Shown piece by piece: positions 1-18,685 of a stretch of 48,809 nucleotides of DNA. Both the position numbers and the translations under genes were made by a program. Within the stretch, counting starts at the first letter, position 1. Each line of letters starts with the position of its first letter. The notes below the pieces were generated by a model that saw nothing but the letters and a program-made list of their open reading frames with translations, did not search any database and had not been told where the DNA came from. Origin of the DNA: a virus; the IMG/VR virus record IMGVR_UViG_3300037466_001923; one strand, given 5' to 3'.

Positions 1-127
1 CACCGTGATCGACAGCTCGGCCGCACGTTGCGTGAAAGGCGCCTTCATCTCAGCCCGATGGTCCAACCAGTCCTGCCAGGATTTCTCTGGCATCCAGTCC
101 GGAAGGTCGACACTCACCTTGGCGCGC
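1..127. repeat. Terminal overlap: bases 1-127 identical to 48683-48809 (circular contig closure)
   Basis: Compared both ends base by base: 127/127 identical. A minus-strand ORF stays in frame across the junction. Confidence 0.95.
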
Positions 128-3266: not shown

Positions 3267-3673
3267 GCATTCCTCGCAGCGAGTACCGCTTCCATGAGAG
3301 TCATCTGGGCACGCCAGACGAGAAATTGGGTCAACACGTGGTTACCCAGAACGCGCTCCACCTCGTCGATCTTCTCGGCGGGCAGCGAGCGGCGCGCGTT
3401 GCCTTTCGAGTTCACGGGCTCCGGGTGGAAGTAGTCCGAGACGTGCTGGTGCTGAAGGTCGGCCAGCGCCGCCAGCATTTGCAGCTTCAGCCCAGGCAGC
3501 ACGCGGTGCTTCCACGCCAGCGCGCATGCCTCGCGAAAGGTTTGGCACTTGGCGATCTCGTCATCCGGCAAGAACCGGCGTTTGGGCTCCCCTTGGGCCG
3601 CAGGGGGCACTGCAAACCCTGCGTGGGAGCGCCCCGAGGGCAATTCATTCATCTGCATCGCGTGTTTCCTCAT
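3263..3673 (-). CDS. Hypothetical protein in the cII position (first gene after the cro-proximal terminator)
   Basis: 136-aa ORF. An AGGAA SD favours Met6 (3658) as the start. No family recognised. Confidence 0.5.
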   Translation of the reverse strand: MRKHAMQMNELPSGRSHAGFAVPPAAQGEPKRRFLPDDEIAKCQTFREACALAWKHRVLPGLKLQMLAALADLQHQHVSDYFHPEPVNSKGNARRSLPAEKIDEVERVLGNHVLTQFLVWRAQMTLMEAVLAARNA

Positions 3674-3721
3674 TGGGAAATTTCATCGGTTCCACGGTCG
3701 CATCCACAGTCGATCGTGGAT

Positions 3722-3751
3722 TCAAATAAAGGGCATCGAAACCCGATGCCC
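3722..3751 (-). terminator. Rho-independent terminator downstream of cro (tR1-like)
   Basis: GGGCATCG/CGATGCCC 8-bp stem at 3731-3751, followed on the minus strand by TTTATTT. Confidence 0.6.
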
Positions 3752-3773
3752 TGCAATCCCACTGATGTCACCC

Positions 3774-4073
3774 CTATTTCCTCGCACCCTTGCCGCGCTG
3801 ACGACCGTTCGGGACTTGGACGTCATCGATCGACTTGATGCGATCGACGCCCTCAACGAGATCCGGCCAAACCCGCGAGAGCAGTTCCGCGGGAAACATG
3901 TCCTTCCGCGTAACCAATCCGCCTGTGGCATCCTCAATCGGAATTCCGAAAGGAACGGGGACGGGGCGCTCACCGCTGGCCCATCGACTAACATCAGCAG
4001 CATGTGCACCAATCGCCCTGCTGAGCGAGGCAAGCCGTCCGCGTTTTTGGGAGAGGTAGGTCTTCAGGTCCAT
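3774..4073 (-). CDS. cro: Cro/YdaS-type HTH regulator
   Basis: MDLKTYLSQKRGRLASLSRAIGAHAADVSRWASGERPVP. Start set at ATG 4073, because the longer ORF start (4121) lies upstream of the predicted promoter. Confidence 0.75.
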   Translation of the reverse strand: MDLKTYLSQKRGRLASLSRAIGAHAADVSRWASGERPVPVPFGIPIEDATGGLVTRKDMFPAELLSRVWPDLVEGVDRIKSIDDVQVPNGRQRGKGARK

Positions 4074-4079
4074 GCGCAC

Positions 4080-4108
4080 ACTATAGCGATGCGCTAAACA
4101 TAAAGCAA
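4080..4108 (-). promoter_or_regulatory. PR-like promoter TTGCTT-17-TATAGT reading into cro
   Basis: -35 at 4108-4103 and -10 at 4085-4080 on the minus strand. Only 6 nt separate the -10 from the cro ATG. Confidence 0.6.
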
Positions 4109-4145
4109 TAGCGAATCGCACATTCCATTGTTTAGCGATTTGCTA
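4084..4145. promoter_or_regulatory. Three 13-bp operator-like sites TAGCG-N3-CGCTA between cro and cI
   Basis: 4084-4096 TAGCGatgCGCTA (perfect), 4109-4121 TAGCGaatCGCAC, 4133-4145 TAGCGattTGCTA. Centres are 25 and 24 bp apart. Confidence 0.6.
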
Positions 4146-4158
4146 TGGAATCGCGCGC

Positions 4159-4998
4159 ATGAAAACCATCGACGAAATCCGACTGGACAACCTGCTGCTG
4201 GCGATCAGCCGCGCAGGCACCGCAACGGCGCTGGCCGAGAAGTCAGGGCTTTCCGCCGCCTACCTAAGCCAGATCAAGAACCGGCAGCCAGACAGTAAGA
4301 CTGGAAACCCGAAGAACATGGGGGACGATGCGGCGCGGAAAATTGAGGCCGGCATTGGCGAAAAGCGTGGTTGGATGGATGTGGACCATTCCACGACAAC
4401 CTTGCTGATTCCTGTCAAGGCAAAAGATTATTCAGATCAGATTGAAACCAGCCTTAATGAGCTTCCTCAGGCGCCCTTTTACAATCCTCAACAAACACCC
4501 ACAAGAACGCTTACAGGCGTCAAGGTGCGTCCGATTGTTACTTACGAGGACCTGGAAGAACTCCCCAAGGAGTCTACGGTTCTCATCACGAGGATTGACG
4601 TGGAGCTGTCTGCGGGGAACGGGAGGGAGACCTGGCATATTGAGGAGAAGGAGCCGCTGCCATTTCAAGCGGACTACATCCGGACCCTCGATGCCAAGCC
4701 TAAGAACTTAGTCGCCGTGAAGGTCAACGGTGACAGCATGGAGACGCGGCTGTTCGACAAGGACACGGTGGTAGTAGACACCGCCGACACGCGTGTACCA
4801 GCCAATGGCGGTGTATTTGCCCTGGTCTATGCAGGGGAGCTGCTGGTCAAGCGCTTATTTAGGTTGCCGGACGGAAGCTTGAAGATCGTCAGCGACAACG
4901 CGGCTCGCTACGAACCCGTGAATGTTGGGCCGGAGCAAATTGACCATGTGAGCATCATCGGCAGAGTGAAATACCGTTCTGGGACTGGCGATTTCTGA
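4159..4998 (+). CDS. cI: CI-type repressor: N-terminal HTH plus C-terminal S24 (LexA-like) autopeptidase
   Basis: HTH TALAEKSGLSAAYLSQIKN. The S24 part has VNGDSMETRLF (Ser nucleophile) and LLVKRLF (Lys). Confidence 0.9.
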   Translation: MKTIDEIRLDNLLLAISRAGTATALAEKSGLSAAYLSQIKNRQPDSKTGNPKNMGDDAARKIEAGIGEKRGWMDVDHSTTTLLIPVKAKDYSDQIETSLNELPQAPFYNPQQTPTRTLTGVKVRPIVTYEDLEELPKESTVLITRIDVELSAGNGRETWHIEEKEPLPFQADYIRTLDAKPKNLVAVKVNGDSMETRLFDKDTVVVDTADTRVPANGGVFALVYAGELLVKRLFRLPDGSLKIVSDNAARYEPVNVGPEQIDHVSIIGRVKYRSGTGDF

Positions 4999-5075
4999 CC
5001 GGGTGTGCCGCCGATCAGTGCCTAGAGGATGGTGTACGGGCATCAAGAACCAAGACAAAAACGACAAGCAAAAAA

Positions 5076-5372
5076 ATGAACCCGCGTTACCGTGTACCCC
5101 CGCCCGAGCCTGCCATTAAGCATCCGTCCCCTTGGCGAGCAGTTGCAGCGTTCACCGGCCATGCGTTGGCTGGGGCAGCAATCTTCGTGATCGTTGCACT
5201 GCTGGCCTTCGGTTTAGGAAAATTCGTACACCTCCTAGAAGAGAACGGTGCAACGTCAACCCTAGTCATGTGCCTGACCACGTTGGAGTACGCGCTGTTC
5301 TTCGCGGATGCTTTGTGCGTGCTATTCTTCCTTATCAACGCGATCAGGGCGGCTTACTTGGAGATGCAATGA
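5076..5372 (+). CDS. Two-TM membrane protein in the rexA/B position
   Basis: Hydrophobic spans ALAGAAIFVIVALLAFGL and YALFFADALCVLFFLINAI. Lies directly downstream of cI. Confidence 0.6.
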   Translation: MNPRYRVPPPEPAIKHPSPWRAVAAFTGHALAGAAIFVIVALLAFGLGKFVHLLEENGATSTLVMCLTTLEYALFFADALCVLFFLINAIRAAYLEMQ

Positions 5373-5596
5373 TGAACTCCACCTGGAAGATCTTCGTCGA
5401 TGCGGCAAAAGAAACTCCAAAGCTGTATTTCGCTCCTCTGCGCGCCATAGCGAAAAGCCTCGGCCAAGTGCAAACGGAAATGCGGCAGGGACGCGGCACC
5501 GTCGTTACGGTGGCCAAGTCGCGTGCGACCAACGCAGCGAAGCGCAAGGCGATGAAGATCGCTCTCAAGAAAGCAGGCTTCAGGAAGCAGAAATAG
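5369..5596 (+). CDS. Small basic protein (75 aa), translationally coupled to 5076..5372
   Basis: ATGA overlap at 5369-5372. MMNSTWKIFVDAAKETPK...KRKAMKIALKKAGFRKQK. Followed by a strong terminator. Confidence 0.5.
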   Translation: MMNSTWKIFVDAAKETPKLYFAPLRAIAKSLGQVQTEMRQGRGTVVTVAKSRATNAAKRKAMKIALKKAGFRKQK

Positions 5597-5623
5597 GCGC
5601 GCATCGCTCGCGACGAGAAAAAG

Positions 5624-5648
5624 AAACCCGCTTGGCGGGTTTTTTTTC
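5624..5648 (+). terminator. Rho-independent terminator ending the cI operon
   Basis: AAACCCGC-TTG-GCGGGTTT hairpin followed by a T8 run. Confidence 0.8.
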
Positions 5649-5698
5649 GTCCATGTGACGCGTTTTTATACCTTGCCTGGACCCATCGCTATAAAAGC

Positions 5699-5719
5699 TG
5701 GCCCGCCATGGGCTTTTTT
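5699..5719 (+). terminator. Weaker second hairpin plus T6
   Basis: GCCC-gccat-GGGC then TTTTTT. Confidence 0.35.
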
Positions 5720-5744
5720 GTTGCCTGTACGCTACAGACTCGCA

Positions 5745-5813
5745 ACGGCATTCGCTAAAGAAATTTAGCGATCCCCTAAATTTACCTCTTGCACTTTATT
5801 TAGCGCCTCGCTA
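5745..5813. promoter_or_regulatory. OL-like operator cluster with the same TAGCG-N3-CGCTA motif
   Basis: 5801-5813 TAGCGcctCGCTA (perfect), 5766-5778 TAGCGatcCCCTA, and a half-site CGCTA at 5753-5757. Confidence 0.5.
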
Positions 5814-5817
5814 TAGT
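5789..5817 (+). promoter_or_regulatory. PL-like promoter TTGCAC-17-TATAGT
   Basis: -35 at 5789-5794, -10 at 5812-5817. The operator overlaps the spacer and -10 exactly as at PR. Confidence 0.6.
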
Positions 5818-5861
5818 TCGCCCATCGACGCACCACCGGTGCCAACAAGATGGAGGACGCG

Positions 5862-6116
5862 ATGCAAGCAGCCCAAACCCGCGCCAACGCACTGAGCAAC
5901 AAGGCGCCTACCACTTACTGGACGAAACCTTTCCACGGCATCCAGCACCTCGGCACCGGCGACCGCTGGGTGACGGTCGAGGACAAGGGCTGCATCGCTC
6001 AGCTCGTCTGCTGGTTCCCCGGCTGCGGTTTCCGCCCCGATGTCACCACGCACACCGATGCCGAAACGGCTCGCCAAGCTGGCGAAGCGTGGTTCGGTCT
6101 CTTCGGGCACGCCTGA
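5862..6116 (+). CDS. Hypothetical protein, first gene of the PL-type operon
   Basis: ORF 5850..6116. ATG 5862 is preferred because GGAGGA lies 4 nt upstream. Confidence 0.55.
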   Translation: MQAAQTRANALSNKAPTTYWTKPFHGIQHLGTGDRWVTVEDKGCIAQLVCWFPGCGFRPDVTTHTDAETARQAGEAWFGLFGHA

Positions 6117-6119
6117 ACC

Positions 6120-6275
6120 ATGACGAACCAACAGCTCGGCGCCGTCCTTCTTTCGGTGGCAGTAATGGCCATCGCCATCGCCGTGCACACCGCCTGGCGC
6201 ATCAAGCACGACCGCTTCACGGTCGACGAAATGGATCAGAACAACGACCAGCGCTCACAGAAGCACCGCCGCTGA
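6120..6275 (+). CDS. 51-aa single-TM protein (below the ORF-track size cutoff)
   Basis: My translation: MTNQQLGAVLLSVAVMAIAIAVHTAWRIKHDRFTVDEMDQNNDQRSQKHRR. Confidence 0.4.
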   Translation: MTNQQLGAVLLSVAVMAIAIAVHTAWRIKHDRFTVDEMDQNNDQRSQKHRR

Positions 6276-6285
6276 CCAACAGGGG

Positions 6286-6651
6286 ATGACGATCATGACG
6301 CTAACCGACGCGCTAAATGCGGCATTTGGAAAATCCGCAAAGACGCTGGATGTCTCGCACGTGGCCAACTACATGGAAGAAGACGTCGAGCCGTTCGGCC
6401 TCGTTCTGGATGACAACGGCGGGATCTTCGTCTCTTGTGGCGGCGACGTTATTGGCCAATTTTCCACGACGGCCAAGAACACGCGCCTGTGCTTTTGCGT
6501 GATCGTCAACGATGACGCGGGAAAAAAGTGGGACTACGAAAAACAAGAAATGCAGGCCATGTATGAACGCGGCGAAAAAGACCAGATTGACTGGAGCAAA
6601 TGGCATTCAAGTCGCCCGCGCAAGGTGCTCCGCGTCGTTGCAAGCATCTAA
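6286..6651 (+). CDS. Hypothetical protein
   Basis: 121-aa ORF. The start may instead be ATG 6295. Confidence 0.55.
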   Translation: MTIMTLTDALNAAFGKSAKTLDVSHVANYMEEDVEPFGLVLDDNGGIFVSCGGDVIGQFSTTAKNTRLCFCVIVNDDAGKKWDYEKQEMQAMYERGEKDQIDWSKWHSSRPRKVLRVVASI

Positions 6652-6694
6652 CCCCGCCACTGAACACGACATATAAGCCACGAAACAAAACATC

Positions 6695-7075
6695 ATGAAG
6701 AAAACAATCTTTCTGCTTTTCGCTTCGCTCACTGCCCTGTATGGCTGCAGCCGCGATGCAGACGTTGCGTCTCGCAACCTTTCGAATGCCGCTGACAACT
6801 TCGAGATCAATCGCCGGATCGTCTTCTACAACGGCATCACCGGCGACTACATGCTCACGATCGAGGGCCTTTGCTCGAAGGACAACGACAGCACCGACCG
6901 AAAGCTTGTAATCGTCTGCAAGACGGGGCCCTCGACCTACAAAAAGCATTTCCTCGGTCTCTCCGACAACGTCACCTATTTCATTGAGCAGATCGACGGC
7001 GCCAACATCGGCACCTACCGCTACAAGGTGACGTTCAAGCCTTCGTCGATCGTTCCGGACATCGAAATTCGATAA
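6695..7075 (+). CDS. Lipoprotein
   Basis: MKKTIFLLFASLTALYGC: signal peptide with a lipobox-like LYGC. Confidence 0.65.
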   Translation: MKKTIFLLFASLTALYGCSRDADVASRNLSNAADNFEINRRIVFYNGITGDYMLTIEGLCSKDNDSTDRKLVIVCKTGPSTYKKHFLGLSDNVTYFIEQIDGANIGTYRYKVTFKPSSIVPDIEIR

Positions 7076-7089
7076 GAAGCGGAATCAAC

Positions 7090-7305
7090 ATGCACGTGGC
7101 CGAATTCGACATGTCCCGAGTGGTTACGCATTTCATCGAGTGTGACCACTGGCGTGAGTACAACCGCCCGCAAGCGTGGACCGTTGCGCTTTGTGTTGGC
7201 ATGAAGCACACGAGCTATCGCGATCTCTCCAGCACCGCTTACCCCGAGGCTTTCGCCGTCGTCGATGACTTCGGAACCCTCAAAACCGTGACGCCGTGGA
7301 GGTAG
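7090..7305 (+). CDS. Hypothetical protein
   Basis: 71-aa ORF in the operon. Confidence 0.5.
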   Translation: MHVAEFDMSRVVTHFIECDHWREYNRPQAWTVALCVGMKHTSYRDLSSTAYPEAFAVVDDFGTLKTVTPWR

Positions 7306-7307
7306 CC

Positions 7308-7463
7308 ATGCATCTGACCGACAACGAAGCCGCCATCCGCGCAGCTGAGCGCGAGAACCAATACAGCCGGCGCAAGCACAACAACCGAATCCTGAACGCA
7401 GTTGTGGGCGGCCTGATGGTTGTTGCGGCGATCTACTACTTGGTTCCTCACTGGGGAATGTGA
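7308..7463 (+). CDS. 51-aa C-terminal-TM protein (below the ORF-track cutoff)
   Basis: My translation: MHLTDNEAAIRAAERENQYSRRKHNNRILNAVVGGLMVVAAIYYLVPHWGM. Confidence 0.4.
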   Translation: MHLTDNEAAIRAAERENQYSRRKHNNRILNAVVGGLMVVAAIYYLVPHWGM

Positions 7464-7684
7464 TGCCCGTACCCGTTTCTGCGCGTCAACGCACCGAATT
7501 CAATCTGGTACCGATCAACGGTCCCATACAAAGCCTTCTCGTCGAGCCGCGCCGCATTGCGTGGGCCAGGTCGATACGAAAGCACGCTCCCCAAGCGCTT
7601 GCGTATCTGGCCCTCGTGTGCGGCGCGATTGGAGTCGGCTGCGGCTGGTATGTCTCCTTCGTCCTCGGCGTCACGCGCACGTGA
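7463..7684 (+). CDS. Small protein with a C-terminal TM segment
   Basis: ALAYLALVCGAIGVGCGWYVSFVLGV. ATG 7463 overlaps the upstream stop. Confidence 0.45.
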   Translation: MPVPVSARQRTEFNLVPINGPIQSLLVEPRRIAWARSIRKHAPQALAYLALVCGAIGVGCGWYVSFVLGVTRT

Positions 7685-7752
7685 CAACTGCTCACCTCCG
7701 GCGCTTGACTCTCTTCGCCAACCTTTCAGCGCATTTCCAACACACAGAACGT

Positions 7753-7956
7753 ATGCAGATCAAATCTCGAATCGAACTCGACGCTGACGACATCAAACAG
7801 GCCATTCAGAACTTTGTGCGTGAGAAGACCGGTCGGGACATCGTCAGCGTTTGCAAGGTCGAGCGCGAACGCGGCAGCGAAGGCTTCAGCGTTCCTTCTG
7901 CTTACGACCTCGGCCCTGAGCCTATCGACGAAACGACCAAGATCAAGGGGGCCTGA
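7753..7956 (+). CDS. Hypothetical protein, 67 aa
   Basis: Plausible coding part (MQIKSRIELDADDIKQAIQNFVREK...) of ORF-track entry 7420..7956. Confidence 0.5.
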   Translation: MQIKSRIELDADDIKQAIQNFVREKTGRDIVSVCKVERERGSEGFSVPSAYDLGPEPIDETTKIKGA

Positions 7957-7957
7957 A

Positions 7958-8428
7958 ATGCGTGCACTCCTCATGTGGATCACGTCGTTCTTGCCGGCCC
8001 GCGTCATCAGCGATAACGGTCACCCGTACCTGGAACGCTACTACGTCGGCACCCTCTTCGGCATCCGGTTCTATCTGCACCGCTTTGTCGGGTCCGATCC
8101 GGACCGAGGTGTGCACGATCACCCGTGGGCCTGGGCGCGCTCGATCGTGCTGGCCGGCTGGTACCTGGAGGAGCGCCGCACGGGTATTCGGTCCGTTCAT
8201 TGGTTCAACAGCCTGGAAGGCGACACCTTCCACCGGATCATCAAACCCGATGGCGTGGCCGACGTCTGGACCCTCTTCTATCACAAGGCTGGTGACGTCA
8301 AACCTTGGGGCTTCATGCGCTACCTGGGCCACGGACAGGCCTTGTGGAGCGAATACGTCTATGGCGGCAAAGGTAAAGAGACCGCCTGGTGGCTGACAGC
8401 TAAGAAAGGCCGGGATCTCCGTCTCTGA
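7958..8428 (+). CDS. Conserved hypothetical protein with an HDHPW motif
   Basis: Start at ATG 7958 inside ORF 7814..8428. YLERYYV...LHRFVGSDPDRGVHDHPWAW. Confidence 0.6.
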   Translation: MRALLMWITSFLPARVISDNGHPYLERYYVGTLFGIRFYLHRFVGSDPDRGVHDHPWAWARSIVLAGWYLEERRTGIRSVHWFNSLEGDTFHRIIKPDGVADVWTLFYHKAGDVKPWGFMRYLGHGQALWSEYVYGGKGKETAWWLTAKKGRDLRL

Positions 8429-8463
8429 ATTCACAAGCGCAATACCCATCAACAGGAGAACGC

Positions 8464-8832
8464 ATGCAACAAATCCAAATTCCGCCGCTTGCAGAAGGCG
8501 AGATCTACCTCTGCGGCGTCGTCAACGCTGCAGGCGATGTGACGCACACGATCCTGCTTCCCGCTGAAGCCGAGAAGCGCATGAGCTGGCCTGACGCCAT
8601 GGAGTGGGCCAAGGGCCTGAATGCCGATCTGCCGACGCGCGCTGAACTGGTGATGGCCTTCGAGCAGCACCGCAGCCAATTTAAAGAGGCGGCCTACTGG
8701 TCCAACACTCCGGACGCCGATCCCGAATATGCCGGCTGGGTTTGGTGTCAGTCCTTCGGCAACGGCTACCAGAGCTACGACCGGCAGCTCGTCGAGTTGC
8801 GCGCCCGTGCCGTCCGCAGATTGACGATTTAA
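8464..8832 (+). CDS. DGR target protein 1, DUF1566/C-type-lectin-fold type
   Basis: WPDAMEWAKGLNADLPTRAEL...AYWS...GWVWCQSFGNGYQSYDRQLVELRARAVRRL. The C-terminus is VR1. Confidence 0.85.
   Translation: MQQIQIPPLAEGEIYLCGVVNAAGDVTHTILLPAEAEKRMSWPDAMEWAKGLNADLPTRAELVMAFEQHRSQFKEAAYWSNTPDADPEYAGWVWCQSFGNGYQSYDRQLVELRARAVRRLTI
8731..8823 (+). repeat. DGR variable repeat VR1
   Basis: 93-bp ungapped match to the TR. Of 17 differences, 15 are at TR adenines and 2 are non-A at the 5' edge. Confidence 0.8.
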
Positions 8833-8862
8833 CCCTTCATTCATTTTCAGGAGAGGTCAGCA

Positions 8863-9318
8863 ATGACGCCCACGCTTGAAGCAGTTGAAGCAAAGCATGC
8901 CGAGATCACCGCCATGATCGAGGCTATCCGCAAGGCAGCGGCACGCGAATACAAGGTCGCCGGCGGCACGATCCAACTGAACCACGGAGAACAGTACGCC
9001 GGCCTCATTCTCGGCAAAGACGGCGAGCCGGATCATCACCTGATCCTCCTCCCCGGCGATGAAGCTGAACTGAACTGGGACGATGCCAAGAAGTGGGCCA
9101 AGGAACAGGGCGGCGAGTTGCCGACGCGCCGCGAGCAATCGCTCTTGTACGCCAATCTCAAAGATGAGTTCCAGGGCGCCTGGTACTGGTCCGGAGAGGC
9201 TCACCAGCGCGAGTCCGGCTGGGCTTGGTGTCAGTACTTCGGCTACGGCACCCAGAGCCACCTCCGACAGGACACCGAGTTGCGCGCCCGTGCCGTCCGC
9301 AGATTGATCCTTTTGTAA
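8863..9318 (+). CDS. DGR target protein 2, DUF1566/C-type-lectin-fold type (paralogue of 8464..8832)
   Basis: WDDAKKWAKEQGGELPTRREQ...WYWS...GWAWCQYFGYGTQSHLRQDTELRARAVRRL. The C-terminus is VR2. Confidence 0.85.
   Translation: MTPTLEAVEAKHAEITAMIEAIRKAAAREYKVAGGTIQLNHGEQYAGLILGKDGEPDHHLILLPGDEAELNWDDAKKWAKEQGGELPTRREQSLLYANLKDEFQGAWYWSGEAHQRESGWAWCQYFGYGTQSHLRQDTELRARAVRRLILL
9214..9306 (+). repeat. DGR variable repeat VR2
   Basis: 93-bp ungapped match to the TR. All 13 differences are at TR adenines. Confidence 0.9.
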
Positions 9319-9331
9319 TTTAACAATTACA
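9314..9331 (+). other. Hairpin TGTAATT-TAAC-AATTACA just downstream of VR2
   Basis: Perfect 7-bp inverted repeat with a 4-nt loop, 7 nt after the VR2 end. Confidence 0.55.
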
Positions 9332-9337
9332 TCCACC

Positions 9338-9712
9338 GTGGCACTGCACACAAACCTTCCGATCTACAAGGCGGCCTATGGGTTGCTGGACGTGGTGACG
9401 GACCTGGTCAAGAACATGGCTCGCGACTTCAAGCGGAGCATCGGCGAGAAGATCAGCGCGGAATGCATCGAGATCATGGTGCTGGTCTTCCGCGCCAATG
9501 TCGCAGCCGACAAGGCGCCGCACCTGGGCGAACTTATCGAACGCCTTCAGGTGATCGAGCTGCTTTTGCGCCTTGGCATGGACAAGCGCCTGATCTCGCG
9601 GCCAGCTTATGCCAAAGCCGTCGAGATTACGACCAGCATCGGAAAGCAGGCCAATGGCTGGAAGAAGTCCGCAAATCGCCCGCTTCATGGAGGTCAAGGC
9701 CGTCATGACTGA
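9338..9712 (+). CDS. avd: Accessory variability determinant (Avd-like four-helix-bundle protein)
   Basis: 124-aa helical protein between target and TR. NLPIYKAAYGLLDVVTDLVKNMARDFK... GTG start. Confidence 0.7.
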   Translation: MALHTNLPIYKAAYGLLDVVTDLVKNMARDFKRSIGEKISAECIEIMVLVFRANVAADKAPHLGELIERLQVIELLLRLGMDKRLISRPAYAKAVEITTSIGKQANGWKKSANRPLHGGQGRHD

Positions 9713-9853
9713 GCGATCTTTCAATCTGGTCGTGCCGCTGGCCCACAAGGCCACCGCCATGCGCGTAACGGAAACCGACCGCCGGTGTGCGGCGCGGTCC
9801 AGCGCAGTTTCCCTCCTGAGCAATCGGCCGGGCGACGTAGATAGCACGACATA

Positions 9854-9946
9854 TCCGGCTGGGCTTGGTATCAGAACTTCAACAACGGCAACCAGAACAA
9901 CAACCAACAGAACAACGAGTTGCGCGCCCGTGCCGTCCGCAGATTG
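9854..9946 (+). repeat. DGR template repeat (TR)
   Basis: AAC-rich; in the VR frame it reads WAWYQNFNNGNQNNNQQNNELRARAVRRL. An in-frame TAG lies immediately upstream, so it is non-coding in that frame. Confidence 0.9.
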
Positions 9947-11066
9947 GAAATCGAATGCCGCGTTCTCGTTCGCCGAGCTGGTCGAAGCCTATTTCGACTG
10001 CCGGCGGACGAAGCGCAACAGCGCGAGCGCCCTAGCGTTCGAAATCGATATGGAGAACAACCTGCGTCGCCTGTTCGACGAGCTGCTCAACGGAAGCTAT
10101 ATGCCCGGGCGCTCGAAGTGCTTTGTCATCGACCGTCCGAAGCATCGCGAAGTATGGGCAGCAGAGTTTCGCGATCGCATCGTGCACCACCTGCTTTACA
10201 ACCGCATCGGCCCGCGCTTCGAGCGATCGTTCATTGCTGACTCGTGTGCATGTATCAAGGGACGCGGCACGCTTTACGCCGCTCAGCGCCTGGAAGACAA
10301 GGTGCGGTCAATCACACAGAACTGGGCACGCCCGGCGCACTACCTCAAGTGCGATCTGGCCAACTTCTTCGTCAGCATCGACAAGCGTGTCCTGCTTGAT
10401 CTTCTGCACGCAAGGATTCCAGAACCGTTCTGGCGTGATCTGACCGAAATCGTGCTGATGCACGATCCCCGGGACGACTTCGTCTACCTGGGAGATCCGG
10501 CGATGATCAATCGCGTCCCGCCCCACAAACGCCTGATTAAGCAACCGGCACACCTGGGCCTACCAATCGGCAACCTGTCTTCACAGTTCTTTGCCAACGT
10601 CTATCTCAACGAGTTGGATCAGTTCGTGAAGCACGAGCTGCGCTGCCGTCATTACATCCGCTACGTGGATGACTTTGTGTTGCTGCACGAATCACCGCAA
10701 TGGCTTAACGACGCCCACGCTGCCATCGCAGCCTTTTTGCCGGCACGCCTTCACGCGCGCCTCAACCCCAACAAGACCATCCTGCAGCCGGTTGCCCGTG
10801 GCATCGACTTCGTCGGCCAGGTGATTCGGCCGTGGGTTCGGCACACCCGCAAGCGGACGCTGCATAGCGGCATCCAGCGCGTTCGCGAGATACCGGCTGC
10901 AGACGTCTACCAGGTCACGAACAGCTACTTTGGCCTGCTGCGTCAGGCCACCGGAAGCCATGCCGAGCGGGCAAAGCTCGCCAACGTCGCCCTTCAACGT
11001 GGGCATGCGGTAAATCGCCAGCTCACAAAGATCTATCGCAGCTCCCTACACGGAGAGGAATCCTGA
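9930..11066 (+). CDS. DGR reverse transcriptase
   Basis: PIGNLSSQFFANVYLNELD (the DGR-type SQ motif) and YIRYVDDFVLL. Start uncertain: GTG 9930 lies inside the TR, or ATG 9705 overlaps the avd stop. The ORF track gives 9609..11066. Confidence 0.9.
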   Translation: MPSADWKSNAAFSFAELVEAYFDCRRTKRNSASALAFEIDMENNLRRLFDELLNGSYMPGRSKCFVIDRPKHREVWAAEFRDRIVHHLLYNRIGPRFERSFIADSCACIKGRGTLYAAQRLEDKVRSITQNWARPAHYLKCDLANFFVSIDKRVLLDLLHARIPEPFWRDLTEIVLMHDPRDDFVYLGDPAMINRVPPHKRLIKQPAHLGLPIGNLSSQFFANVYLNELDQFVKHELRCRHYIRYVDDFVLLHESPQWLNDAHAAIAAFLPARLHARLNPNKTILQPVARGIDFVGQVIRPWVRHTRKRTLHSGIQRVREIPAADVYQVTNSYFGLLRQATGSHAERAKLANVALQRGHAVNRQLTKIYRSSLHGEES

Positions 11067-11725
11067 TGTTGACTCACCAACTTCAAGGCGCCTTTGAGGA
11101 TGCCTACGAAAAAGCAGCCGCATCCAGCAAACCCGATGATTGGATGAATGCCGCCCTCATGGGCAAGCAGTTCTCCAATGCATATCGCGAGGCGTCACGG
11201 TATCCGGCAGCGTATCAATACCTTTTCACGTCGCCGATCGGTGGCGGCGACGTTTGGCGTCCAGATTCATCCTATTGGAACGGTCAACGCCCGAAGGCCT
11301 CTCGCGCCCTTTTCTCGGTTCCCGTTTCCCGGCCAAATCAGGATCCCGCAAATCTTGAGGGGTTGGCGAAAGCGCTGTTGGCTCCTCGTGAAATCGTCCG
11401 TGATGCAGATGGCTGGCTAGATCACCCAGCATTGCCGGTATGCGATGAAAGCGTGCGCTTTGACGAACTGCTTAGCGCCTTTGGGATGGAAACCTATTTC
11501 CGCGCCATGGATGGCGACGTGAGCCCGGAAGAGTATGACCGCTACTATGACGAACAAGGCGGTTGTGCTGGCTGGACGCCTGCGCCTCCCGACGGCGATG
11601 GCTGGCGCTTGCTGGCTGTTTATGACACAGAAGACGGGCCAAATGCGATGTTTGCACGTGCGAAGCAGCCCGAGCCCCGCAAGCGCTATGCGCAAGATGC
11701 TCAGAAGCAAGGGGGCGCGCGATGA
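11066..11725 (+). CDS. Hypothetical protein, coupled to both the RT (TGATG) and the methyltransferase (ATGA)
   Basis: 219-aa ORF; no family recognised. Confidence 0.6.
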   Translation: MLTHQLQGAFEDAYEKAAASSKPDDWMNAALMGKQFSNAYREASRYPAAYQYLFTSPIGGGDVWRPDSSYWNGQRPKASRALFSVPVSRPNQDPANLEGLAKALLAPREIVRDADGWLDHPALPVCDESVRFDELLSAFGMETYFRAMDGDVSPEEYDRYYDEQGGCAGWTPAPPDGDGWRLLAVYDTEDGPNAMFARAKQPEPRKRYAQDAQKQGGAR

Positions 11726-13512
11726 TCCGCGACCAGTTCCTGCTCGACATCCAAGAAGAGCTGATCGTCGACAACTTCGCTGGCGGCGGTGGCGCGAGCT
11801 GCGGCATTGAGCTGGCGCTCGGGCGTCACGTAGACCATGCGATCAACCATGACCCCGAGGCCGTGGCTATGCACGCCATGAACCATCCGCAGACTGAACA
11901 TCACTGCGAATCGGTGTGGGACGTTAAGCCTCTGGAGTTGACCGGCGGGCGCCCGGTCGGACTCGCGTGGTTTTCGCCCGACTGCAAGCACTTCAGCAAA
12001 GCCAAGGGCGGTAAGCCGCGCGACAAGAAAATCCGAGGTCTTGCCTGGGTGGCAATGCGCTGGGCAGCTGTGGTGCGTCCGCGCGTCATCATCCTGGAGA
12101 ACGTCGAAGAGTTTCAGACCTGGGGGCCGGTGCTCACTGATGGCACGCCGTGCCCGAAGCGCAAGGGCGACACCTTCCGCTCTTTCGTGCGCCAACTGCG
12201 GGAAAAGGGCTATGCGGTCGAATGGCGAGAGTTGCGCGCGTGTGATTACGGCGCGCCGACCATCCGCAAGCGCCTGTTCCTGATCGCTCGGTGTGACGGA
12301 AAGGCGATAGCCTGGCCGGAGCCTACGCACGGCGCACCTAATAGCGCTGGCGTGCTGGCAAAGCGCCTGAAGCCGTGGCGCACGGCGGCCGAGTGCATCG
12401 ACTGGTCGATTCTTCCGCAGTCCATCTTCGAGCGCGACCGCCCATTGGCGGACGCCACGCTGCGTCGAATCGCGCGTGGCATCCGGCGCTATGTCATCGA
12501 TTCAGCCGATCCGTTCATTGTGAAGGTGAACCACGTCGGCGATGGCTTCCGTGGCCAGCGCACGACCGAGCCAGTGCAAACCTTGACGGCGAAGCATGGT
12601 TTTGGCCTTGTTGCTCCGGTGCTGACCGAGTGCGCCAACGCTTCCACCCAGCGAAACTTCCAGGCCGGAGAGCCGCTGCGCACCCAATGCGCCGAGGTCA
12701 AAGGCGGGCATTTCGCTCTGGCTGCCGCAACGCTTGTGCAAACCGGTTACGGCGAGCGGCCAGGACAAGCACCGCGTGCGCCCGGCTTGGACAAACCGCT
12801 GGGCACGGCCATGGCTGGCGGCGTAAAACATGCACTAGTGTCGGCTTTCCTTGCAAAGCACTACGGGGGAAATTATGACGGGCCTGGCGTTGGCTTGCCT
12901 GAGCCGGCCAGCACGATTACGACCACCGATCACCACGCACTGGTTTCCGCGCAACTGGTAGGGTGTGGTGGCCGCGCTGGCCAGAGCCGCCCGCGAGACG
13001 CTAGCGAGCCTGCACAGACGCTCACCGCAAAAGCGGACACGTGCGTCGTCACCTCCAATCTGGTCAAGTTGCGCGGCGAATGCACCGGCAGCAAGACCGA
13101 CGAGCCCGTGCCGACGATTTCGGCGCAAGGTAACCACATCGGCGAGGTCCGGGCCTTCCTGGTCAAGTACTACAGCGAGGGCGGCCAGGATCAGGATTGC
13201 CGCGATCCGATGCACACCATCCCGACGAAAGATCGACTCGGCTTGGTGACGGTCGCGGGCCAGGAATACCAGATCGCCGACATTGGCATGCGCATGCTGG
13301 AGCCGCACGAGCTGTACGCCGCCCAGGGGTTTCCTAGCAGCTACGTCATCGCTCCAGTCATAAACGGCCGCCGGCTCCCCAAGCATGCTCAGGTGCGCAT
13401 GTGCGGCAACAGTGTCAGTCCGCCGCTGGCCGCAGCCCTGGTGCGCGCGAATGTGCCGGAGATGGCCAGTTGGTCCGCGCGCGAGGCTAAATCAATAGGG
13501 GTGGCAGCATGA
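11722..13512 (+). CDS. DNA (cytosine-5)-methyltransferase
   Basis: Motif I DNFAGGGG, IV SPDCKHFS, VI ENVEEF, VIII RKRLFLIA, X GNSVSPPLAAALV. Confidence 0.9.
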   Translation: MIRDQFLLDIQEELIVDNFAGGGGASCGIELALGRHVDHAINHDPEAVAMHAMNHPQTEHHCESVWDVKPLELTGGRPVGLAWFSPDCKHFSKAKGGKPRDKKIRGLAWVAMRWAAVVRPRVIILENVEEFQTWGPVLTDGTPCPKRKGDTFRSFVRQLREKGYAVEWRELRACDYGAPTIRKRLFLIARCDGKAIAWPEPTHGAPNSAGVLAKRLKPWRTAAECIDWSILPQSIFERDRPLADATLRRIARGIRRYVIDSADPFIVKVNHVGDGFRGQRTTEPVQTLTAKHGFGLVAPVLTECANASTQRNFQAGEPLRTQCAEVKGGHFALAAATLVQTGYGERPGQAPRAPGLDKPLGTAMAGGVKHALVSAFLAKHYGGNYDGPGVGLPEPASTITTTDHHALVSAQLVGCGGRAGQSRPRDASEPAQTLTAKADTCVVTSNLVKLRGECTGSKTDEPVPTISAQGNHIGEVRAFLVKYYSEGGQDQDCRDPMHTIPTKDRLGLVTVAGQEYQIADIGMRMLEPHELYAAQGFPSSYVIAPVINGRRLPKHAQVRMCGNSVSPPLAAALVRANVPEMASWSAREAKSIGVAA

Positions 13513-13796
13513 CGCGCACTCTCACCATCCCCGTCAAGGGCATCTACTTTGACCAGATCAAAGCCCGAACGAAGGCCGAGGAATATCGCCTTGTGACCGA
13601 CTACTGGCGCGCTCGTCTCTTCGGCAAGGAATATGACGAGATCGTGCTGACGCGCGGCTATCCGCACAAGGAAGCGGCAGACCGCCGGCTTCGCCTCCCC
13701 TACCAAGGCTGGCAGATCAAGGTCATCACACATCCTCATTTTGGTTCGAAGCCAGTCGAGGTCTTCGCAATCGACGTTTCCGGGACTCCGCTATGA
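13509..13796 (+). CDS. ASCH/PUA-like domain protein
   Basis: IPVKGIYFDQIKARTKAEEYR...IVLTRGY resembles ASCH. ATGA coupling to the methyltransferase. Confidence 0.5.
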   Translation: MTRTLTIPVKGIYFDQIKARTKAEEYRLVTDYWRARLFGKEYDEIVLTRGYPHKEAADRRLRLPYQGWQIKVITHPHFGSKPVEVFAIDVSGTPL

Positions 13797-14596
13797 CCAA
13801 GCAAACCTACGGCACCTTGTGCACGCTGGCCGAGCAGCACGGCGTTGTCATGACCGAACAGGTGCGGGCGCTGTTGCGTGCTGTTGAGGAAGCGGATCAG
13901 CGGAGCCAGTCGGATGCGAGCAGCTACAAGCGCATGCTTGAAGATGCGGTTCTCAGTCTGGCGGCGATTGATGCAGCGCTCGGAATTGATCCCGATGAGG
14001 CAGGTGGAGCGGAGCCGATTCTTGAGGCCATCACCACTCTGAAGAAGCAAGCCGCTGTTGCCGCGGCCGCCCTTCCCTATGAACTGAAAGGCATACCCGA
14101 AGCCATCCGCGAAGGCAGCGGTTTCTGGCGCACCTGCACCGGCTGCTATGAAAGCGAGGACGGTCATCCGGTTGGTCACTACCCGCACAGCAAGATTCTT
14201 GGTTGCGCGCTCGGCGGCGGTTGTAGCGAGTGCGGCGGCATTGGCGCGGTGTGGGATACCACTGACTACGCAGCAATGGCGGATGAAGGGTGGGCGCAAA
14301 TGCAGCGCGAGCAAGCGGAGAAGGGGCGAGCGGAGAGGGTAGCAGCCGGCTGGCTGCCCATCACGGCTCCTGGCCAGGTGGCCGTAGGTGACAAGTTGAA
14401 GTTCACCATTGGTGAAACGGAATACCGCGAGACGGTGAAGCAGATCCTTGATCCCGGCACCGACAAGGAAGAACTGATCTACAACAAGCGCCGCAACTAC
14501 TACCTCATCACGTCGATGGCCATTGCCAACAAGGGCAGCCAGAAGAACGTCAGGGTCTTGGCCATCGCCAAGCCGGCGCGGCAGGAGGAAAAGTAA
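13793..14596 (+). CDS. Hypothetical protein with a Cys cluster
   Basis: CTGCYESEDGHPVGHYPHSKILGCALGGGCSECGG; 267 aa. Confidence 0.6.
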   Translation: MTKQTYGTLCTLAEQHGVVMTEQVRALLRAVEEADQRSQSDASSYKRMLEDAVLSLAAIDAALGIDPDEAGGAEPILEAITTLKKQAAVAAAALPYELKGIPEAIREGSGFWRTCTGCYESEDGHPVGHYPHSKILGCALGGGCSECGGIGAVWDTTDYAAMADEGWAQMQREQAEKGRAERVAAGWLPITAPGQVAVGDKLKFTIGETEYRETVKQILDPGTDKEELIYNKRRNYYLITSMAIANKGSQKNVRVLAIAKPARQEEK

Positions 14597-15147
14597 TGCA
14601 AATCCATATCACGCGCGTGCCGAGTCGGCCCAAACCCACTGTTGGCGACCGAAAGATGATCGGAGGCGTTGAGCACGTGCGCGTCTTGGAGCGGGTAAAG
14701 AGCGGCCCGCATAAAGGTGCGTATGTCGTCAGGGGAATCCGCTCTTGTTTCGAATGGGTTCCGGTGAACGAAGCTCCCGAGCATCTGCAGAAAATGGCTG
14801 GACGCTGGATCGGTAAACAACGTCCCGCGCAGCAGCCGCCAGAACTTGCCTCCGATGATCTGCGAAAGCTGCAGCACATGCTGGGGGCCACACCCGGGCA
14901 CTACCCAAAAACGAAATGGGGGTGGCGCAACTACTACGCGACAACTGGCGGCCCCGCGATGGAGGCAATGAAGCGCATGGAGGCACAAGGGCTCGTAAAG
15001 CTTGGGCATACCAGCAATGACGGCATGGCGTACTACCACGCCACTGAGGTAGGTTGCCGCGCCGCCGGCTTGGCAGGAAAGCAGATCAAACGTGCCCTGG
15101 GAGATAACGGCTCTCCGGAATATCATGTGGAAGGCTGTGAACCATGA
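14596..15147 (+). CDS. Hypothetical protein with a 3' end altered by IS insertion (native stop would follow codon AAC at 15106-15108)
   Basis: The last 12 residues, GSPEYHVEGCEP, are encoded by the IS inverted repeat. Removing 15109-17386 restores ...ALGDN-TGA overlapping the next ATG. Confidence 0.6.
   Translation: MQIHITRVPSRPKPTVGDRKMIGGVEHVRVLERVKSGPHKGAYVVRGIRSCFEWVPVNEAPEHLQKMAGRWIGKQRPAQQPPELASDDLRKLQHMLGATPGHYPKTKWGWRNYYATTGGPAMEAMKRMEAQGLVKLGHTSNDGMAYYHATEVGCRAAGLAGKQIKRALGDNGSPEYHVEGCEP
15101..15108. repeat. 8-bp target-site duplication GAGATAAC (left)
   Basis: Identical octamer at 17379-17386, abutting the other IR. Confidence 0.85.
15109..15132. repeat. IS terminal inverted repeat (transposase-distal end)
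   Basis: Starts GGCTCT. The transposase stop codon lies inside it. Confidence 0.8.
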
Positions 15148-16571
15148 CTAGCTCGCCCCGTGTGGAATCGTCGATAGCAGGTCGAGCAGATATGCACCCG
15201 TTTCGGGTAGGCGCGACGGTTTGCTTCGCGGCGAACTTCATCCTTCGTGATGGGCGGCAATGTGTGTGTTTCCAACTCATCGGCATCGAACACGCCATTG
15301 CACGACCCGCAGCGGCTACCGAGCGCTTCAACAAGCGCGACTTGCCTTTCGACTTGGTCAGCAGTTCGTTTCTTCATGTGGCCCTCCGCTGGCTCCTTCT
15401 TGTGCAGCTTTCCGTACAGCAGCCGTGCGCGCAGCACCTCGAAGCTGTAGCCGCGGCCGGAGCGGTTGATGACCTTTGCGACCCCGTTCAGGGCTTCCGT
15501 GTAGCCGTTCGAAATCGGGTGGTCGAAGTAGGCGAGCATCTCCTCGCGCCAGTTCCGGGTGGAAGTGAGCAACGGCAGGAAGCTCTTCTTGCCCTTCTTC
15601 ATGGCGGCTGGAACGGACTTGCGCCATTCGTCCAGACGCTCAGAGGCTGCAGCCTTGTCGGGCGCGTCGTAGATGTCGTAGAACGCTTCCTTCAGCCGGT
15701 AGGCGGTCGCCACGTGCGGCTCGTTGTCCAGCCACATCTGGAGGTTGAAGCGGCCCTGTTCGTCGAGGTTCTTGTATCGCATCCGGAGCAACGCTTTGCG
15801 CCGCATCCAGTCACGGCTGACGGCCTTCTCCTGCTCCTTGCCGAGGCTGATTCGAATATCGTCCATGGCGCGGTTCGCCATTCTGACCAAGTGGAACTTG
15901 TCGATAACGACTGGCAGACCAGGGAAGACGGATTGCGCTGCGTCCTTGTACGGTCGCCACATGTCGATGGCGAGGCCCTTGACGCCGCCGCGCTCCTTGA
16001 ACTGATGCAGCCACGCCGTCACCAGCGGCTTGTCGCGGTCGGGCAGCATATCAATAGGAACTCGATTGACCACGTCGGTGATGATGCAGCGGAGCTTGCC
16101 GTCAATCTGCGTCTCGTCGATGCCCAGCCACTCTGGCAGCCAGGGTTTGTATTCCGCGTTCAGGCGGTCGATGTAGTCGCCGGCCAGGGTTCGGACGGTC
16201 TTGTCATCGCAGCCCACATGCTCAGCGATGCGAGTGAAGGTATCTCGCAGGCACTGTTCCTCGATGTACTGCACGCAACGGGCTGTCATGCGCGTGGCGG
16301 GATGGATACCGCCCAATGGCTGGATAAACGTGCCGCCGCACTCTCTGCACCTGAAACGCTGCGCATTGGCCTCAATGCTCACAGGACGGCCCCGAATAGG
16401 GCTATCTCGAAAAATGATCATTTTGGGGCCGTGCTTATAAACGCGGCCAATTACGCCGCATTTTTGGCATGCCTCCGGCAAAACTGTGTAGTCGGCCGAG
16501 ATGATGTAGTGGTCGTCTTCGGTGCGCGTCGCGGTCGGAACCCAGCCGGGGAGGTCGAGAATGTCGGTCAT
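15123..16571 (-). CDS. ISL3-family transposase with a roughly 90-aa C-terminal Cys-rich extension
   Basis: N-terminal zf-ISL3 CQKCG...FRCRECGG. DDE core LGIDETQ...LAIDMWRPY...VIDKFH...NGYTEALNG. Tail has CGSCNG...CSTCYRRFH. Confidence 0.9.
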   Translation of the reverse strand: MTDILDLPGWVPTATRTEDDHYIISADYTVLPEACQKCGVIGRVYKHGPKMIIFRDSPIRGRPVSIEANAQRFRCRECGGTFIQPLGGIHPATRMTARCVQYIEEQCLRDTFTRIAEHVGCDDKTVRTLAGDYIDRLNAEYKPWLPEWLGIDETQIDGKLRCIITDVVNRVPIDMLPDRDKPLVTAWLHQFKERGGVKGLAIDMWRPYKDAAQSVFPGLPVVIDKFHLVRMANRAMDDIRISLGKEQEKAVSRDWMRRKALLRMRYKNLDEQGRFNLQMWLDNEPHVATAYRLKEAFYDIYDAPDKAAASERLDEWRKSVPAAMKKGKKSFLPLLTSTRNWREEMLAYFDHPISNGYTEALNGVAKVINRSGRGYSFEVLRARLLYGKLHKKEPAEGHMKKRTADQVERQVALVEALGSRCGSCNGVFDADELETHTLPPITKDEVRREANRRAYPKRVHICSTCYRRFHTGRASHGSQPST

Positions 16572-17306
16572 TTAGAAGCCGGTCAGCAATTGGTATTGGA
16601 CCGGCATCTTATCAATGCCCGAAAGGAACGACTCCGCCTCGCGCCAGTCGTTGGCATTACGGCCTTGGCGGCGAGCTGCAAACGACCACGCCATCGAATC
16701 GGCCGTATAAAGGCATTCACGCACGAATCCGCTACGGAGCGCCGTGGTCTTCAGGCCGAAGCCGTGCAGGCGAAGGTCCGGGCGACGCATCTTGATAGCG
16801 CAAAGAACCGCCTCAATCGCCTTCGGGTCGCCGTTTCTCTTGCAGACGCTGCCCACGCCAACCCAAGCTCCAGGCGCCAGACGGTCGCCATACATGTCGA
16901 TATGGCGGACATAGTCTTCGGGAGCGAAGCCTTGCAGCACGGGCATGATGTAGACACCACCGGTATCGCAAGCTACCAACGCGTCATATCGCTCAATGGT
17001 CAGTCGCTGATGCTCCGCAACCGACAAGCCTGTCTTCGCCACCATGAACGGCTCGCACATATAGTCCTGCGCCACAGCGCACAAAAGATTGCCATTAGTC
17101 GCCCAGCGGCGGATTTGAGCGGCGTACACACTCGGCTCTTCTGGATAGCCGCCGTGAGTAAGGATGGTCGTGAACGCCCCCGAGTCCATCATCCAATCGC
17201 CGACGGCGAAGGGGCTCACGCGCTTCTTCAAGCGGTTCACCGAAATCATTGCCGCCTCGAAGTTCTTGGCATCCGACGGCTGATGCAAACCGATAAAGAA
17301 TCGCAT
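16572..17306 (-). CDS. dpdA: TGT-like DNA transglycosylase (DpdA-like, 7-deazaguanine DNA modification), tentative
   Basis: MRFFIGLHQP...ISVNRL...WMMDSGAF...AQDYMCEP...MPVLQGF...VGVGSVCKR...LHGFGLK...ADSMAWS. Motif order matches my recollection of DpdA/TGT-family proteins. TAAATG junction with the transposase. Confidence 0.5.
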   Translation of the reverse strand: MRFFIGLHQPSDAKNFEAAMISVNRLKKRVSPFAVGDWMMDSGAFTTILTHGGYPEEPSVYAAQIRRWATNGNLLCAVAQDYMCEPFMVAKTGLSVAEHQRLTIERYDALVACDTGGVYIMPVLQGFAPEDYVRHIDMYGDRLAPGAWVGVGSVCKRNGDPKAIEAVLCAIKMRRPDLRLHGFGLKTTALRSGFVRECLYTADSMAWSFAARRQGRNANDWREAESFLSGIDKMPVQYQLLTGF

Positions 17307-18645: not shown

Positions 18646-18685
18646 CAAGGATTCTGGAGACGACACGTCTCGCGTGGAGGATCAG

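Follow-up and report, generated by a model that had tools for sequence, protein, structure and literature searches.

A diversity-generating retroelement with two small, paired lectin-fold targets lies in the early-left region of a temperate phage genome

We have analysed a viral DNA of 48,809 nucleotides (nt), IMG/VR virus record IMGVR_UViG_3300037466_001923, referred to below at its full length as the window. It holds a cassette in which two small target genes, T1 and T2, precede the other components of a diversity-generating retroelement (DGR), and the two open reading frames (ORFs) encode the pair of variable proteins that belong to an intact DGR, one with past activity in this lineage. As judged from sequence comparisons, the proteins would be accessory, non-structural, soluble hypervariable binders made with the early genes, and not a receptor-binding tail tip; we put the probability of this reading at about one half. 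The first-pass annotation of the window had called both plus-strand ORFs as DGR targets, and adenine-specific mismatches between the template repeat (TR) and the variable repeats (VRs) bear the call out. The cassette runs in the order T1, T2, Avd, RT-15 RNA, TR and reverse transcriptase (RT):

8464–8832, plus strand: T1, DGR target 1, 122 amino acids (aa), a minimal DUF1566/Lcl_C-like C-type-lectin domain, called from the ORF and homology
8732–8824, plus strand: VR1, 93 nt, recoding 14 codons at T1 residues 95–110
8863–9318, plus strand: T2, DGR target 2, 151 aa, an N-terminal helix and a C-type-lectin domain
9215–9307, plus strand: VR2, 93 nt, recoding T2 residues 123–138
9338–9712, plus strand: Avd accessory protein, a four-helix bundle, GTG start, PF22296 bAvd
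9674–9856, plus strand: RT-15 structured RNA, Rfam RF03018, directly 5' of TR
9855–9947, plus strand: TR, 93 nt with 27 adenines and runs of AAC codons
9945–11066, plus strand: conserved part of the DGR RT, RVT_1, E 3e-13

In the DGR mechanism, as established for phage BPP-1, RT and Avd copy the TR transcript and errors arise only opposite adenines. In the window, TR differs from VR1 at 16 positions, 15 of which are TR adenines (the sole exception being 9864 C>T), and from VR2 at 13 positions, all of them TR adenines. With regard to IMH/IMH* boundary elements, TR, VR1 and VR2 share an identical, GC-rich 3' segment of 31 nt (to 9946), and the VRs part from TR at the final base (…GATTGA versus …GATTGG). 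A 25-mer from this end of the repeats is present in exactly three copies in the window, where none is expected by chance, and a search by the shared 25-mer revealed no third, remote VR in the window. VR1 ends 8 nt, and VR2 11 nt, ahead of the respective stop codon. An AT-rich inverted repeat (TGTAATT-TAAC-AATTACA, 9318–9335) follows VR2 and overlaps the T2 stop codon; reading of the sequence gave no obvious inverted repeat after VR1. A trace of retrohoming is visible in the closest T2 homologue (P0002), which differs from T2 at 12 residues, 10 of them within the 14 codons that hold TR adenines; because the differences seen in close homologues cluster in these codons, we conclude that the DGR has been active in the lineage. 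The DGR anatomy of the cassette and its mutagenic mechanism are secure.

The remaining components conform to this anatomy. Avd matches PF22296 (bAvd) with 44.9 bits, above the cut-off of 40, and matches NF033474 (DivGenRetAVD) over its full length with an E of 8.5e-12, below the cut-off of that model (45 versus 80). The RT-15 RNA scores 163.7 bits against a gathering score of 82 (E 1e-40) and ends where TR starts. The RT carries motifs typical of the DGR clade (IGNLSSQ at ORF residue 325 and YVDD at 352) and shares 75% identity with the RT of Burkholderia phage Magia and 31% with BPP-1 Brt; models for retrons, group II and DRT elements all stay below their cut-offs on it, and in PADLOC it is hit by generic RT models only. 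The sole open frame for the RT (9609/9687–11066) starts upstream of the RT-15 RNA and continues across it and TR, and no in-frame ATG, GTG or TTG occurs in the 20 codons read between TR and the point where RT conservation sets in (WKSNAAFSFAELVEAYF...). Two explanations offer themselves: an N-terminal extension of ~85–110 aa for which the RT's own template RNA serves as coding sequence, or an unusual start. The Magia RT as annotated also begins upstream of its similarity to the core of the window RT; the Magia TR was not mapped.

Both targets have ribosome-binding sites rated strong (AGGAG, 6 nt upstream, for T1; AGGAGAGG for T2). The gap upstream of T1, at 35 nt, is too short for a promoter of their own, and T1 and T2 would accordingly be co-transcribed with the early genes. 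T1 and T2 share a reading frame, 133 codons apart, and the spacer between them consists of one TAA stop and 10 codons that hold the T2 ribosome-binding site.

On sequence evidence T1 and T2 are paralogues, with 41% identity over 114 aa by BLASTP and an hhalign probability of 100%. The first-pass annotation had described them as small paralogues of the CLec/DUF1566 type, and both the alignment and the predicted fold of T2 support that description. Against Pfam Lcl_C (PF07603, formerly DUF1566) T1 scores 29.1 bits and T2 22.8 bits, both below the gathering cut-off of 34.9, and many homologues of 60–93% identity carry precomputed PF07603 matches and the NCBI name DUF1566. The DUF1566-named homologues number 2620 for T2 and 588 for T1, and the sources are mostly Ralstonia, Burkholderia, Paraburkholderia and Cupriavidus.

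An AlphaFold2 model of T2, built from a 60-sequence alignment, has a predicted local distance difference test score (pLDDT) of 94. It begins with a helix at residues 5–25 (pLDDT ~87–90), where a coiled-coil-like N-terminus had been proposed on first reading, followed by a β-hairpin and a C-type-lectin-like domain (CTLD). The helix is conserved across the family and is amphipathic, with hydrophobic residues at positions 5, 8, 12, 15, 19 and 22. The top Foldseek match of the T2 model in the PDB is 8q4e, the C-terminal domain of Legionella Lcl (E 5e-5, probability 1.00; 134 aligned columns, 23% identity, template modelling (TM) score 0.54–0.62), and many C-type lectin domains follow it in the list. 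Weak alignments link T2 to the trimeric neck-plus-CTLD lectins tetranectin (1htn) and CL-K1 (4yli), with TM scores of 0.44–0.47. Against viral models (BFVD), Foldseek returned small DUF1566 phage proteins and eukaryotic-virus lectins, none with a functional name, and a PDB sequence search with T2 gave chance-level matches only. The AlphaFold2 model of T1 is poor (pLDDT 63, with the VR region disordered) and was left out of the fold search, so that the fold assigned to T1 rests on its homology to T2. The Mtd family is absent from the Pfam, PHROG and NCBIfam matches of the targets, and there is no Mtd structure among the 50 Foldseek matches listed. A crude hydropathy scan, as distinct from SignalP, detected no N-terminal hydrophobic segment, transmembrane-like window or lipobox in T1, T2 or 171 related ORFs, the few hydrophobic matches among the latter being the conserved GGxYAG strand.

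The first and last 127 nt of the window (1–127 and 48683–48809) are identical; it therefore represents a complete circular phage genome of ~48,682 bp, and no further target is hidden in the tail module. The genome is that of a myovirus, and its contractile-tail module includes a sheath gene. The map is lambda-like, with cro, cI, terminators, a PL-like promoter, early-left genes, xis and int:

3774–4121, minus strand: cro-like regulator, phrog_35 transcriptional repressor (E 7e-9), at the start of the divergent rightward operon
4159–4998, plus strand: CI-like repressor with an S24 peptidase (UmuD-like) C-terminal domain, phrog_4 (E 9e-32), phrog_6201 and phrog_811
5624–5642 and 5700–5714: terminator-like hairpins from a hairpin scan
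~5790–5818, plus strand: candidate PL-type sigma-70 promoter just downstream of the hairpins, TTGCAC, 17-nt spacer, TATAGT
11722–13512, plus strand: C5 methyltransferase, in the early-left run
18674–18898, plus strand: xis-like ORF (DUF4224), PF13986 (E 8e-13), directly upstream of int
18903–20003, plus strand: tyrosine integrase, phrog_1 (E 1.6e-34), at the end of the early-left operon
25365–26696, minus strand: tail fibre, 443 aa, phrog_11518 (E 6e-40), in the contractile-tail module and without a VR

The early-left genes on the plus strand include a Phage_VG64 homologue, T1, T2, Avd, RT, the C5 methyltransferase, a Lar-like gene, the xis-like ORF and int; beyond int the esterase, endolysin, tail fibre, baseplate, hub, tape measure, tube, sheath, portal and terminase genes all lie on the minus strand. 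The complete map thus agrees with the earlier placement of the targets in a PL-type early-left region, with 16 kb between them and the tail fibre gene, which lies on the opposite strand. A stringent sigma-70 scan reported no promoter in 3500–15200, so that the PL candidate is a reading of the sequence.

The same arrangement recurs widely. With the T2 alignment as query, a search limited to a single genome for each species yielded 77 loci, mostly in Betaproteobacteria, which were inspected with 10-kb flanks. Avd and RT homologues lie directly downstream of the targets in 63 of them, and these 63 loci carry two target-like genes in 46 cases, three in 13, four in one and a single gene in three, all co-oriented. 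Where such genes are detectable, cI/cro lies upstream of the cassette and methyltransferase and int genes lie downstream. The lack of a tail gene within 10 kb in the 77 loci was considered as evidence and rejected, such a lack being expected anyway with the tail module at the far end of the prophage.

Isolated phages provide further cases. Burkholderia phage Magia (MT701587) carries the cassette at 77% nt identity, where it follows repressor, nuclease, RecT and ATPase genes and precedes int, and has a third, remote target (gene 57) that is the first plus-strand gene after the repressor region. In 'Shewanella' phage vB_Sb_QDWS the order is repressor ... RecT, exonuclease, T1, T2, Avd, RT, methylase ... 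integrase. This record (locus L086, OK094664.1) and that of 'Hujiaoplasma phage zrk29-1' (OP650936.1) have the same length, 47,902 bp, and give near-identical matches to the cassette at 76.5% nt identity; the stated hosts, Shewanella and Tenericutes, look doubtful. A search of phage records with the RT identified at least five Pseudomonas phages with a 63–65% identical RT of the same lineage. In three of these, phPA-G, LPPA56 and Cruim01, Avd and RT come after two tandem target-like genes (160–220 aa); the cassette lies upstream of the integrase gene and, as far as the annotation goes, follows repressor/recombination genes and comes before a methylase. Five of the six target-like genes in these phages bear a VR; the second LPPA56 gene aligned poorly. 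A 38% identical homologue is gp4 of EBPR siphovirus 1, whose record contains only hypothetical proteins and so tells nothing about the context. The early-left position recurs in every complete genome examined and in every locus with readable flanks, and recurrence in dozens of prophages as well as isolated phages contradicts the possibility, raised in the first-pass annotation, that the position is a recent rearrangement.

The loci also vary in composition. Seven (L013, L029 and L032, at about 9600–11000, and also L058, L061, L073 and L082) have intact T1- and/or T2-like genes and no detected Avd or RT homologue. They look like 'frozen' targets whose diversification system has been lost or was never linked. 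In L013, L029 and L032 the N-terminus of the next ORF (MATI..L..R..ECLEF.G.IC) is HNH-like by eye, no family search having been run. In many loci (L019, L020, L037, L040, L055, L059, L067 and L074, and also L088 and L089) the upstream partner belongs to a third size class of ~200 aa, which begins with a GGFYAG strand and carries a 60–80 aa insertion (…NPSA.P…Y……PAQT…). The tandem pair usually consists of one target with an N-terminal extension and one without, a pattern that suggests joint working.

We next consider the virions in which the cassette is found. The virion proteins of the window were compared by tblastn with the complete vB_Sb_QDWS genome and with a partial Magia locus (tail fibre to tube, thus tail proteins only). 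The tail fibre, baseplate, hub, tape measure, tube, sheath, portal and TerL gave no match (E <= 1e-3) in the Magia part or in vB_Sb_QDWS, while in the same comparisons the cassette proteins were 60–63% (T1), 59–61% (T2), 84–85% (Avd) and 74–75% (RT) identical. By megablast, the structural 20 kb of the window matches no phage record except for one piece of Burkholderia phage Bups phi1 (a partial record), 318 nt at 78% identity in a putative tail protein gene. Phage phPA-G is classified in Detrevirus, the genus of D3, a phage with a long non-contractile tail; the tail of the window phage has a sheath. D3 and PMG1 share mosaic pieces of the phPA-G early-left region and are absent among the matches listed of the RT search, from which it appears that the cassette is dispensable in a D3-like virion background. 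The region is highly mosaic, and 270 Pseudomonas phages share pieces of it.

These comparisons bear directly on the alternative that T1 and T2 are virion-attached accessory adhesins, bound non-covalently to tail fibres, baseplate or capsid and providing DGR-switchable extra receptor specificities in the way of BPP-1 Mtd, with T2 attached through its N-terminal helix, possibly as a trimer. The same cassette, at 59–85% aa identity, rides in phages without detectable virion similarity, a D3-like siphovirus as well as myoviruses, which makes a conserved docking partner hard to picture. Outside the VRs, where positions vary, the alignments contain 31 invariant columns for T1 and 14 for T2; a scaffold conserved without a conserved virion partner argues against a docked tail-tip role. 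Moreover, relatives that lack the cassette exist, all copies, the remote ones among them, are in the early-left operon with none beside tail genes in the complete genomes examined (the targets of Magia, vB_Sb_QDWS and phPA-G too are encoded away from the tail module), and the phage already has an ordinary 443-aa tail fibre. The non-structural reading is thus favoured because the position recurs, remote copies are early too, the virions are unrelated and the cassette is dispensable. The proposal in the first-pass annotation that the targets would not be virion receptor-binding proteins gains strength from the presence of the cassette in unrelated virions, short of proof.

Several considerations weigh against the non-structural reading, and some of them favour virion-attached adhesins. 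To our knowledge, all phage DGRs characterised so far (BPP-1 Mtd) diversify a receptor-binding protein. Virion proteins such as tail fibres would be expected to lack a signal peptide just as well; the description 'cytoplasmic-looking' therefore stands as to the missing signal and transmembrane segments but does not separate the hypotheses. Since targets normally adjoin TR, their position is weak functional evidence, and the early placement of RT and TR may merely reflect a need for early expression and for retrohoming before packaging. The promoter and terminator calls are consensus matches only. Neither an effector domain nor a known family of defence or anti-defence was detected in the targets or their neighbours: PADLOC and NCBIfam gave no match for the targets or neighbouring ORFs, nor PADLOC for Avd. 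The conserved N-terminal helix, as modelled, could serve attachment or oligomerization of T2, to which the weak alignment to the trimeric lectins 1htn and 4yli may be added, and the strong ribosome-binding sites of both genes would suit an adhesin. Such an assignment also fits the only experimentally characterised phage DGR (PMC5758913) and the finding of Roux et al. that viral DGR targets are mostly predicted tail proteins (PMC8144416). Weighing both sides, we regard the adhesin interpretation as the main alternative, though a rather unlikely one.

A different function would be served if the proteins were prophage defence or superinfection-exclusion sensors, binders expressed in the lysogen that recognize proteins of incoming phages, much as has been proposed for DGR-diversified antigen sensors in multicellular bacteria. 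Cytosolic DGR targets have been proposed to act in conflict systems (PMC10907252, PMC10053308), and the cassette is accessory and located in prophages. In addition, intact target pairs persist in loci without detected Avd and RT, and targets may consequently work without continuing diversification. In the window, however, the genes come after the PL-type promoter and after the terminators that close the cI operon, and should for that reason be repressed in the lysogen; no effector (NTPase, nuclease or protease) is fused to them or encoded nearby, and the lack of PADLOC matches counts against this function as well. We consider it improbable to a marked degree.

The mosaicism of the early-left region, and the movement of the cassette as a unit between unrelated phages, would also be expected of a selfish, hitch-hiking DGR that sustains itself through its own targets with little benefit to the phage, its position being a tolerated insertion site. 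The strong conservation of the scaffold outside the VRs speaks against this, as do the maintenance of two paralogue types across beta- and gammaproteobacterial phages and the open frames kept even where no RT was detected, and we think it very improbable.

By the established DGR mechanism, the cDNA copied from TR by RT and Avd replaces the last ~90 nt of each target gene and thereby re-codes 14 C-terminal-proximal codons on what would be the ligand-binding face of a minimal C-type-lectin domain. In the non-structural reading that we favour, the products, soluble and without signal peptides, would act inside the infected cell, in phage–host or phage–phage conflict. The cassette would be a self-contained mobile module that passes from one temperate phage to another irrespective of virion type and settles in the mosaic early-left region beside recombination, methylase and anti-restriction genes. 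Such neighbours, with the anti-restriction gene of Lar type, are the usual company of counter-defence functions, which provides context and not evidence of a role. A more specific version, in which the pair would form an early-expressed 'phage antibody' repertoire of rewritable soluble binders that neutralize variable host factors, defence proteins for example, or proteins of competing phages, seems to us improbable; if true, it would constitute an adaptive counter-defence class, which temperate phages with unrelated virions carry in their early-left operons in the form of a mobile cassette.

Earlier work has catalogued this lineage (DiGReF 2012, Wu 2018, Magia 2021), and the window is a further member of it. 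The first-pass annotation accordingly overstated the novelty of the arrangement, as multi-VR systems and short, DUF1566-only targets were in hand (PMC3521204, PMC5758913, PMC7883833). The closest described system is that of Magia, whose announcement annotates a DGR with targets in 'relatively short reading frames' (PMC7883833). Magia has the same components in the same order, a small lectin-fold target, a second small target, Avd, TR and RT (genes 47, 46, 45 and 44), and in the same place between the repressor/RecT/ATPase genes and int. It differs in having the remote third target at the head of the early operon, where the window phage has only two targets, in the annotation of gene 46, the T2 homologue, as hypothetical only, and in virion modules without detectable similarity to those of the window. 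The DiGReF survey listed DGRs with 2–4 VRs in R. pickettii 12J, R. solanacearum CMR15, B. thailandensis MSMB43, B. glumae BGR1, Sideroxydans ES-1 and Collimonas Ter331 (PMC3521204). The shared host genera and the 2–4 paralogous targets per TR, together with the fact that R. pickettii and CMR15 itself encode homologues of the window proteins, indicate that these DGRs and that of the window apparently belong to the same lineage; that survey was unable to connect them to prophages and made no comment on operon context (PMC3521204).

Comparison with BPP-1 (mtd-atd-TR-brt) reveals the same use of Avd/Atd, TR, RT and adenine mutagenesis, a C-terminal VR in a C-type-lectin fold and a temperate phage. 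In BPP-1, however, Mtd is a single receptor-binding protein at the tail-fibre tip with its own Mtd domain (PMC5758913), whereas the window has two standalone DUF1566-type domains of 122–151 aa, without Mtd similarity, in an early-left operon. A VR domain of DUF1566 type is shared with Legionella LdtA and with category 'd', which comprises DUF1566, DUF823, Fib_succ_major and CLec2 VRs, about half of them short and DUF1566-only (Wu et al., PMC5758913). LdtA is a surface lipoprotein with an export signal, unlike the phage-borne window proteins, which with their 171 relatives lack a lipobox or signal-like segment. The Legionella Lcl C-terminal domain (8q4e), the best structural match of the T2 model and the founding member of Pfam Lcl_C, is part of a large secreted adhesin and is not DGR-diversified. 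Targets without signal peptides, with a proposed role in intracellular conflict or signalling, are also found as cytosolic sensors in multicellular bacteria and cyanobacteria (PMC10907252, PMC7517822), but those are large multidomain cell-encoded proteins (STAND NTPases, kinases) and the window proteins are bare phage-encoded lectin domains. Among phages, Benler et al. reported that most DGR targets of temperate phages are of unknown function and that targets resembling the BPP-1 tail fibre occur in only 5 of 92 DGR-carrying phages (PMC6199706). In the papers searched we found neither virion proteomics nor functional work on phage proteins of the DUF1566 type, no statement of phage DGRs sitting in early operons, no mention of a recurrent early-left position and no description of cassette sharing among phages with unrelated virion modules.

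Other parts of the genome deserve mention. Directly after cI, at 5076–5596, two ORFs, one of 98 aa that is hydrophobic and membrane-like and one of 74 aa that is basic, are closed by both hairpins; in lambdoid phages this slot holds exclusion genes of the rexAB/sieB type, which are expressed in the lysogen. Pfam gave no match for either ORF, and the membrane-like one, the only one run against PADLOC, has none there. The ORF at 6695–7075 matches Pfam Phage_VG64 (E 3e-54) and starts with a lipoprotein-like signal (MKKTIFLLFASLTALYGC). A stretch of ~280 nt of DNA here resembles gene 64 of mycobacteriophage L5 and relatives at ~74% identity, a nucleotide-level match across phages of Proteobacteria and Actinobacteria that is unexpected. 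Within the plus-strand operon, 15123–17306 on the minus strand contains an ISL3-family transposase (482 aa; Zn_ribbon_ISL3, DDE_Tnp_ISL3) abutting a DpdA-like gene (244 aa, PF23859), the pair being flanked by a 183-aa ORF of unknown nature and the DUF4031/Lar-like genes. This is probably an insertion sequence, perhaps with a DNA-modification passenger gene.

The lineage provides a clean and widespread test case, in that two bare lectin domains are found in an early-left operon wherever flanks are readable and in company with unrelated tails, and the cassette is present in phages that can be cultured, namely Magia, phPA-G, Cruim01 and vB_E192a. If the proteins are within the virion, they would amount to a portable, tail-independent adhesin module that could be useful for host-range engineering. 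If they are outside it, phage DGRs would serve something beyond tropism switching, and the question becomes what variable ligand there is to be bound in the infected cell.

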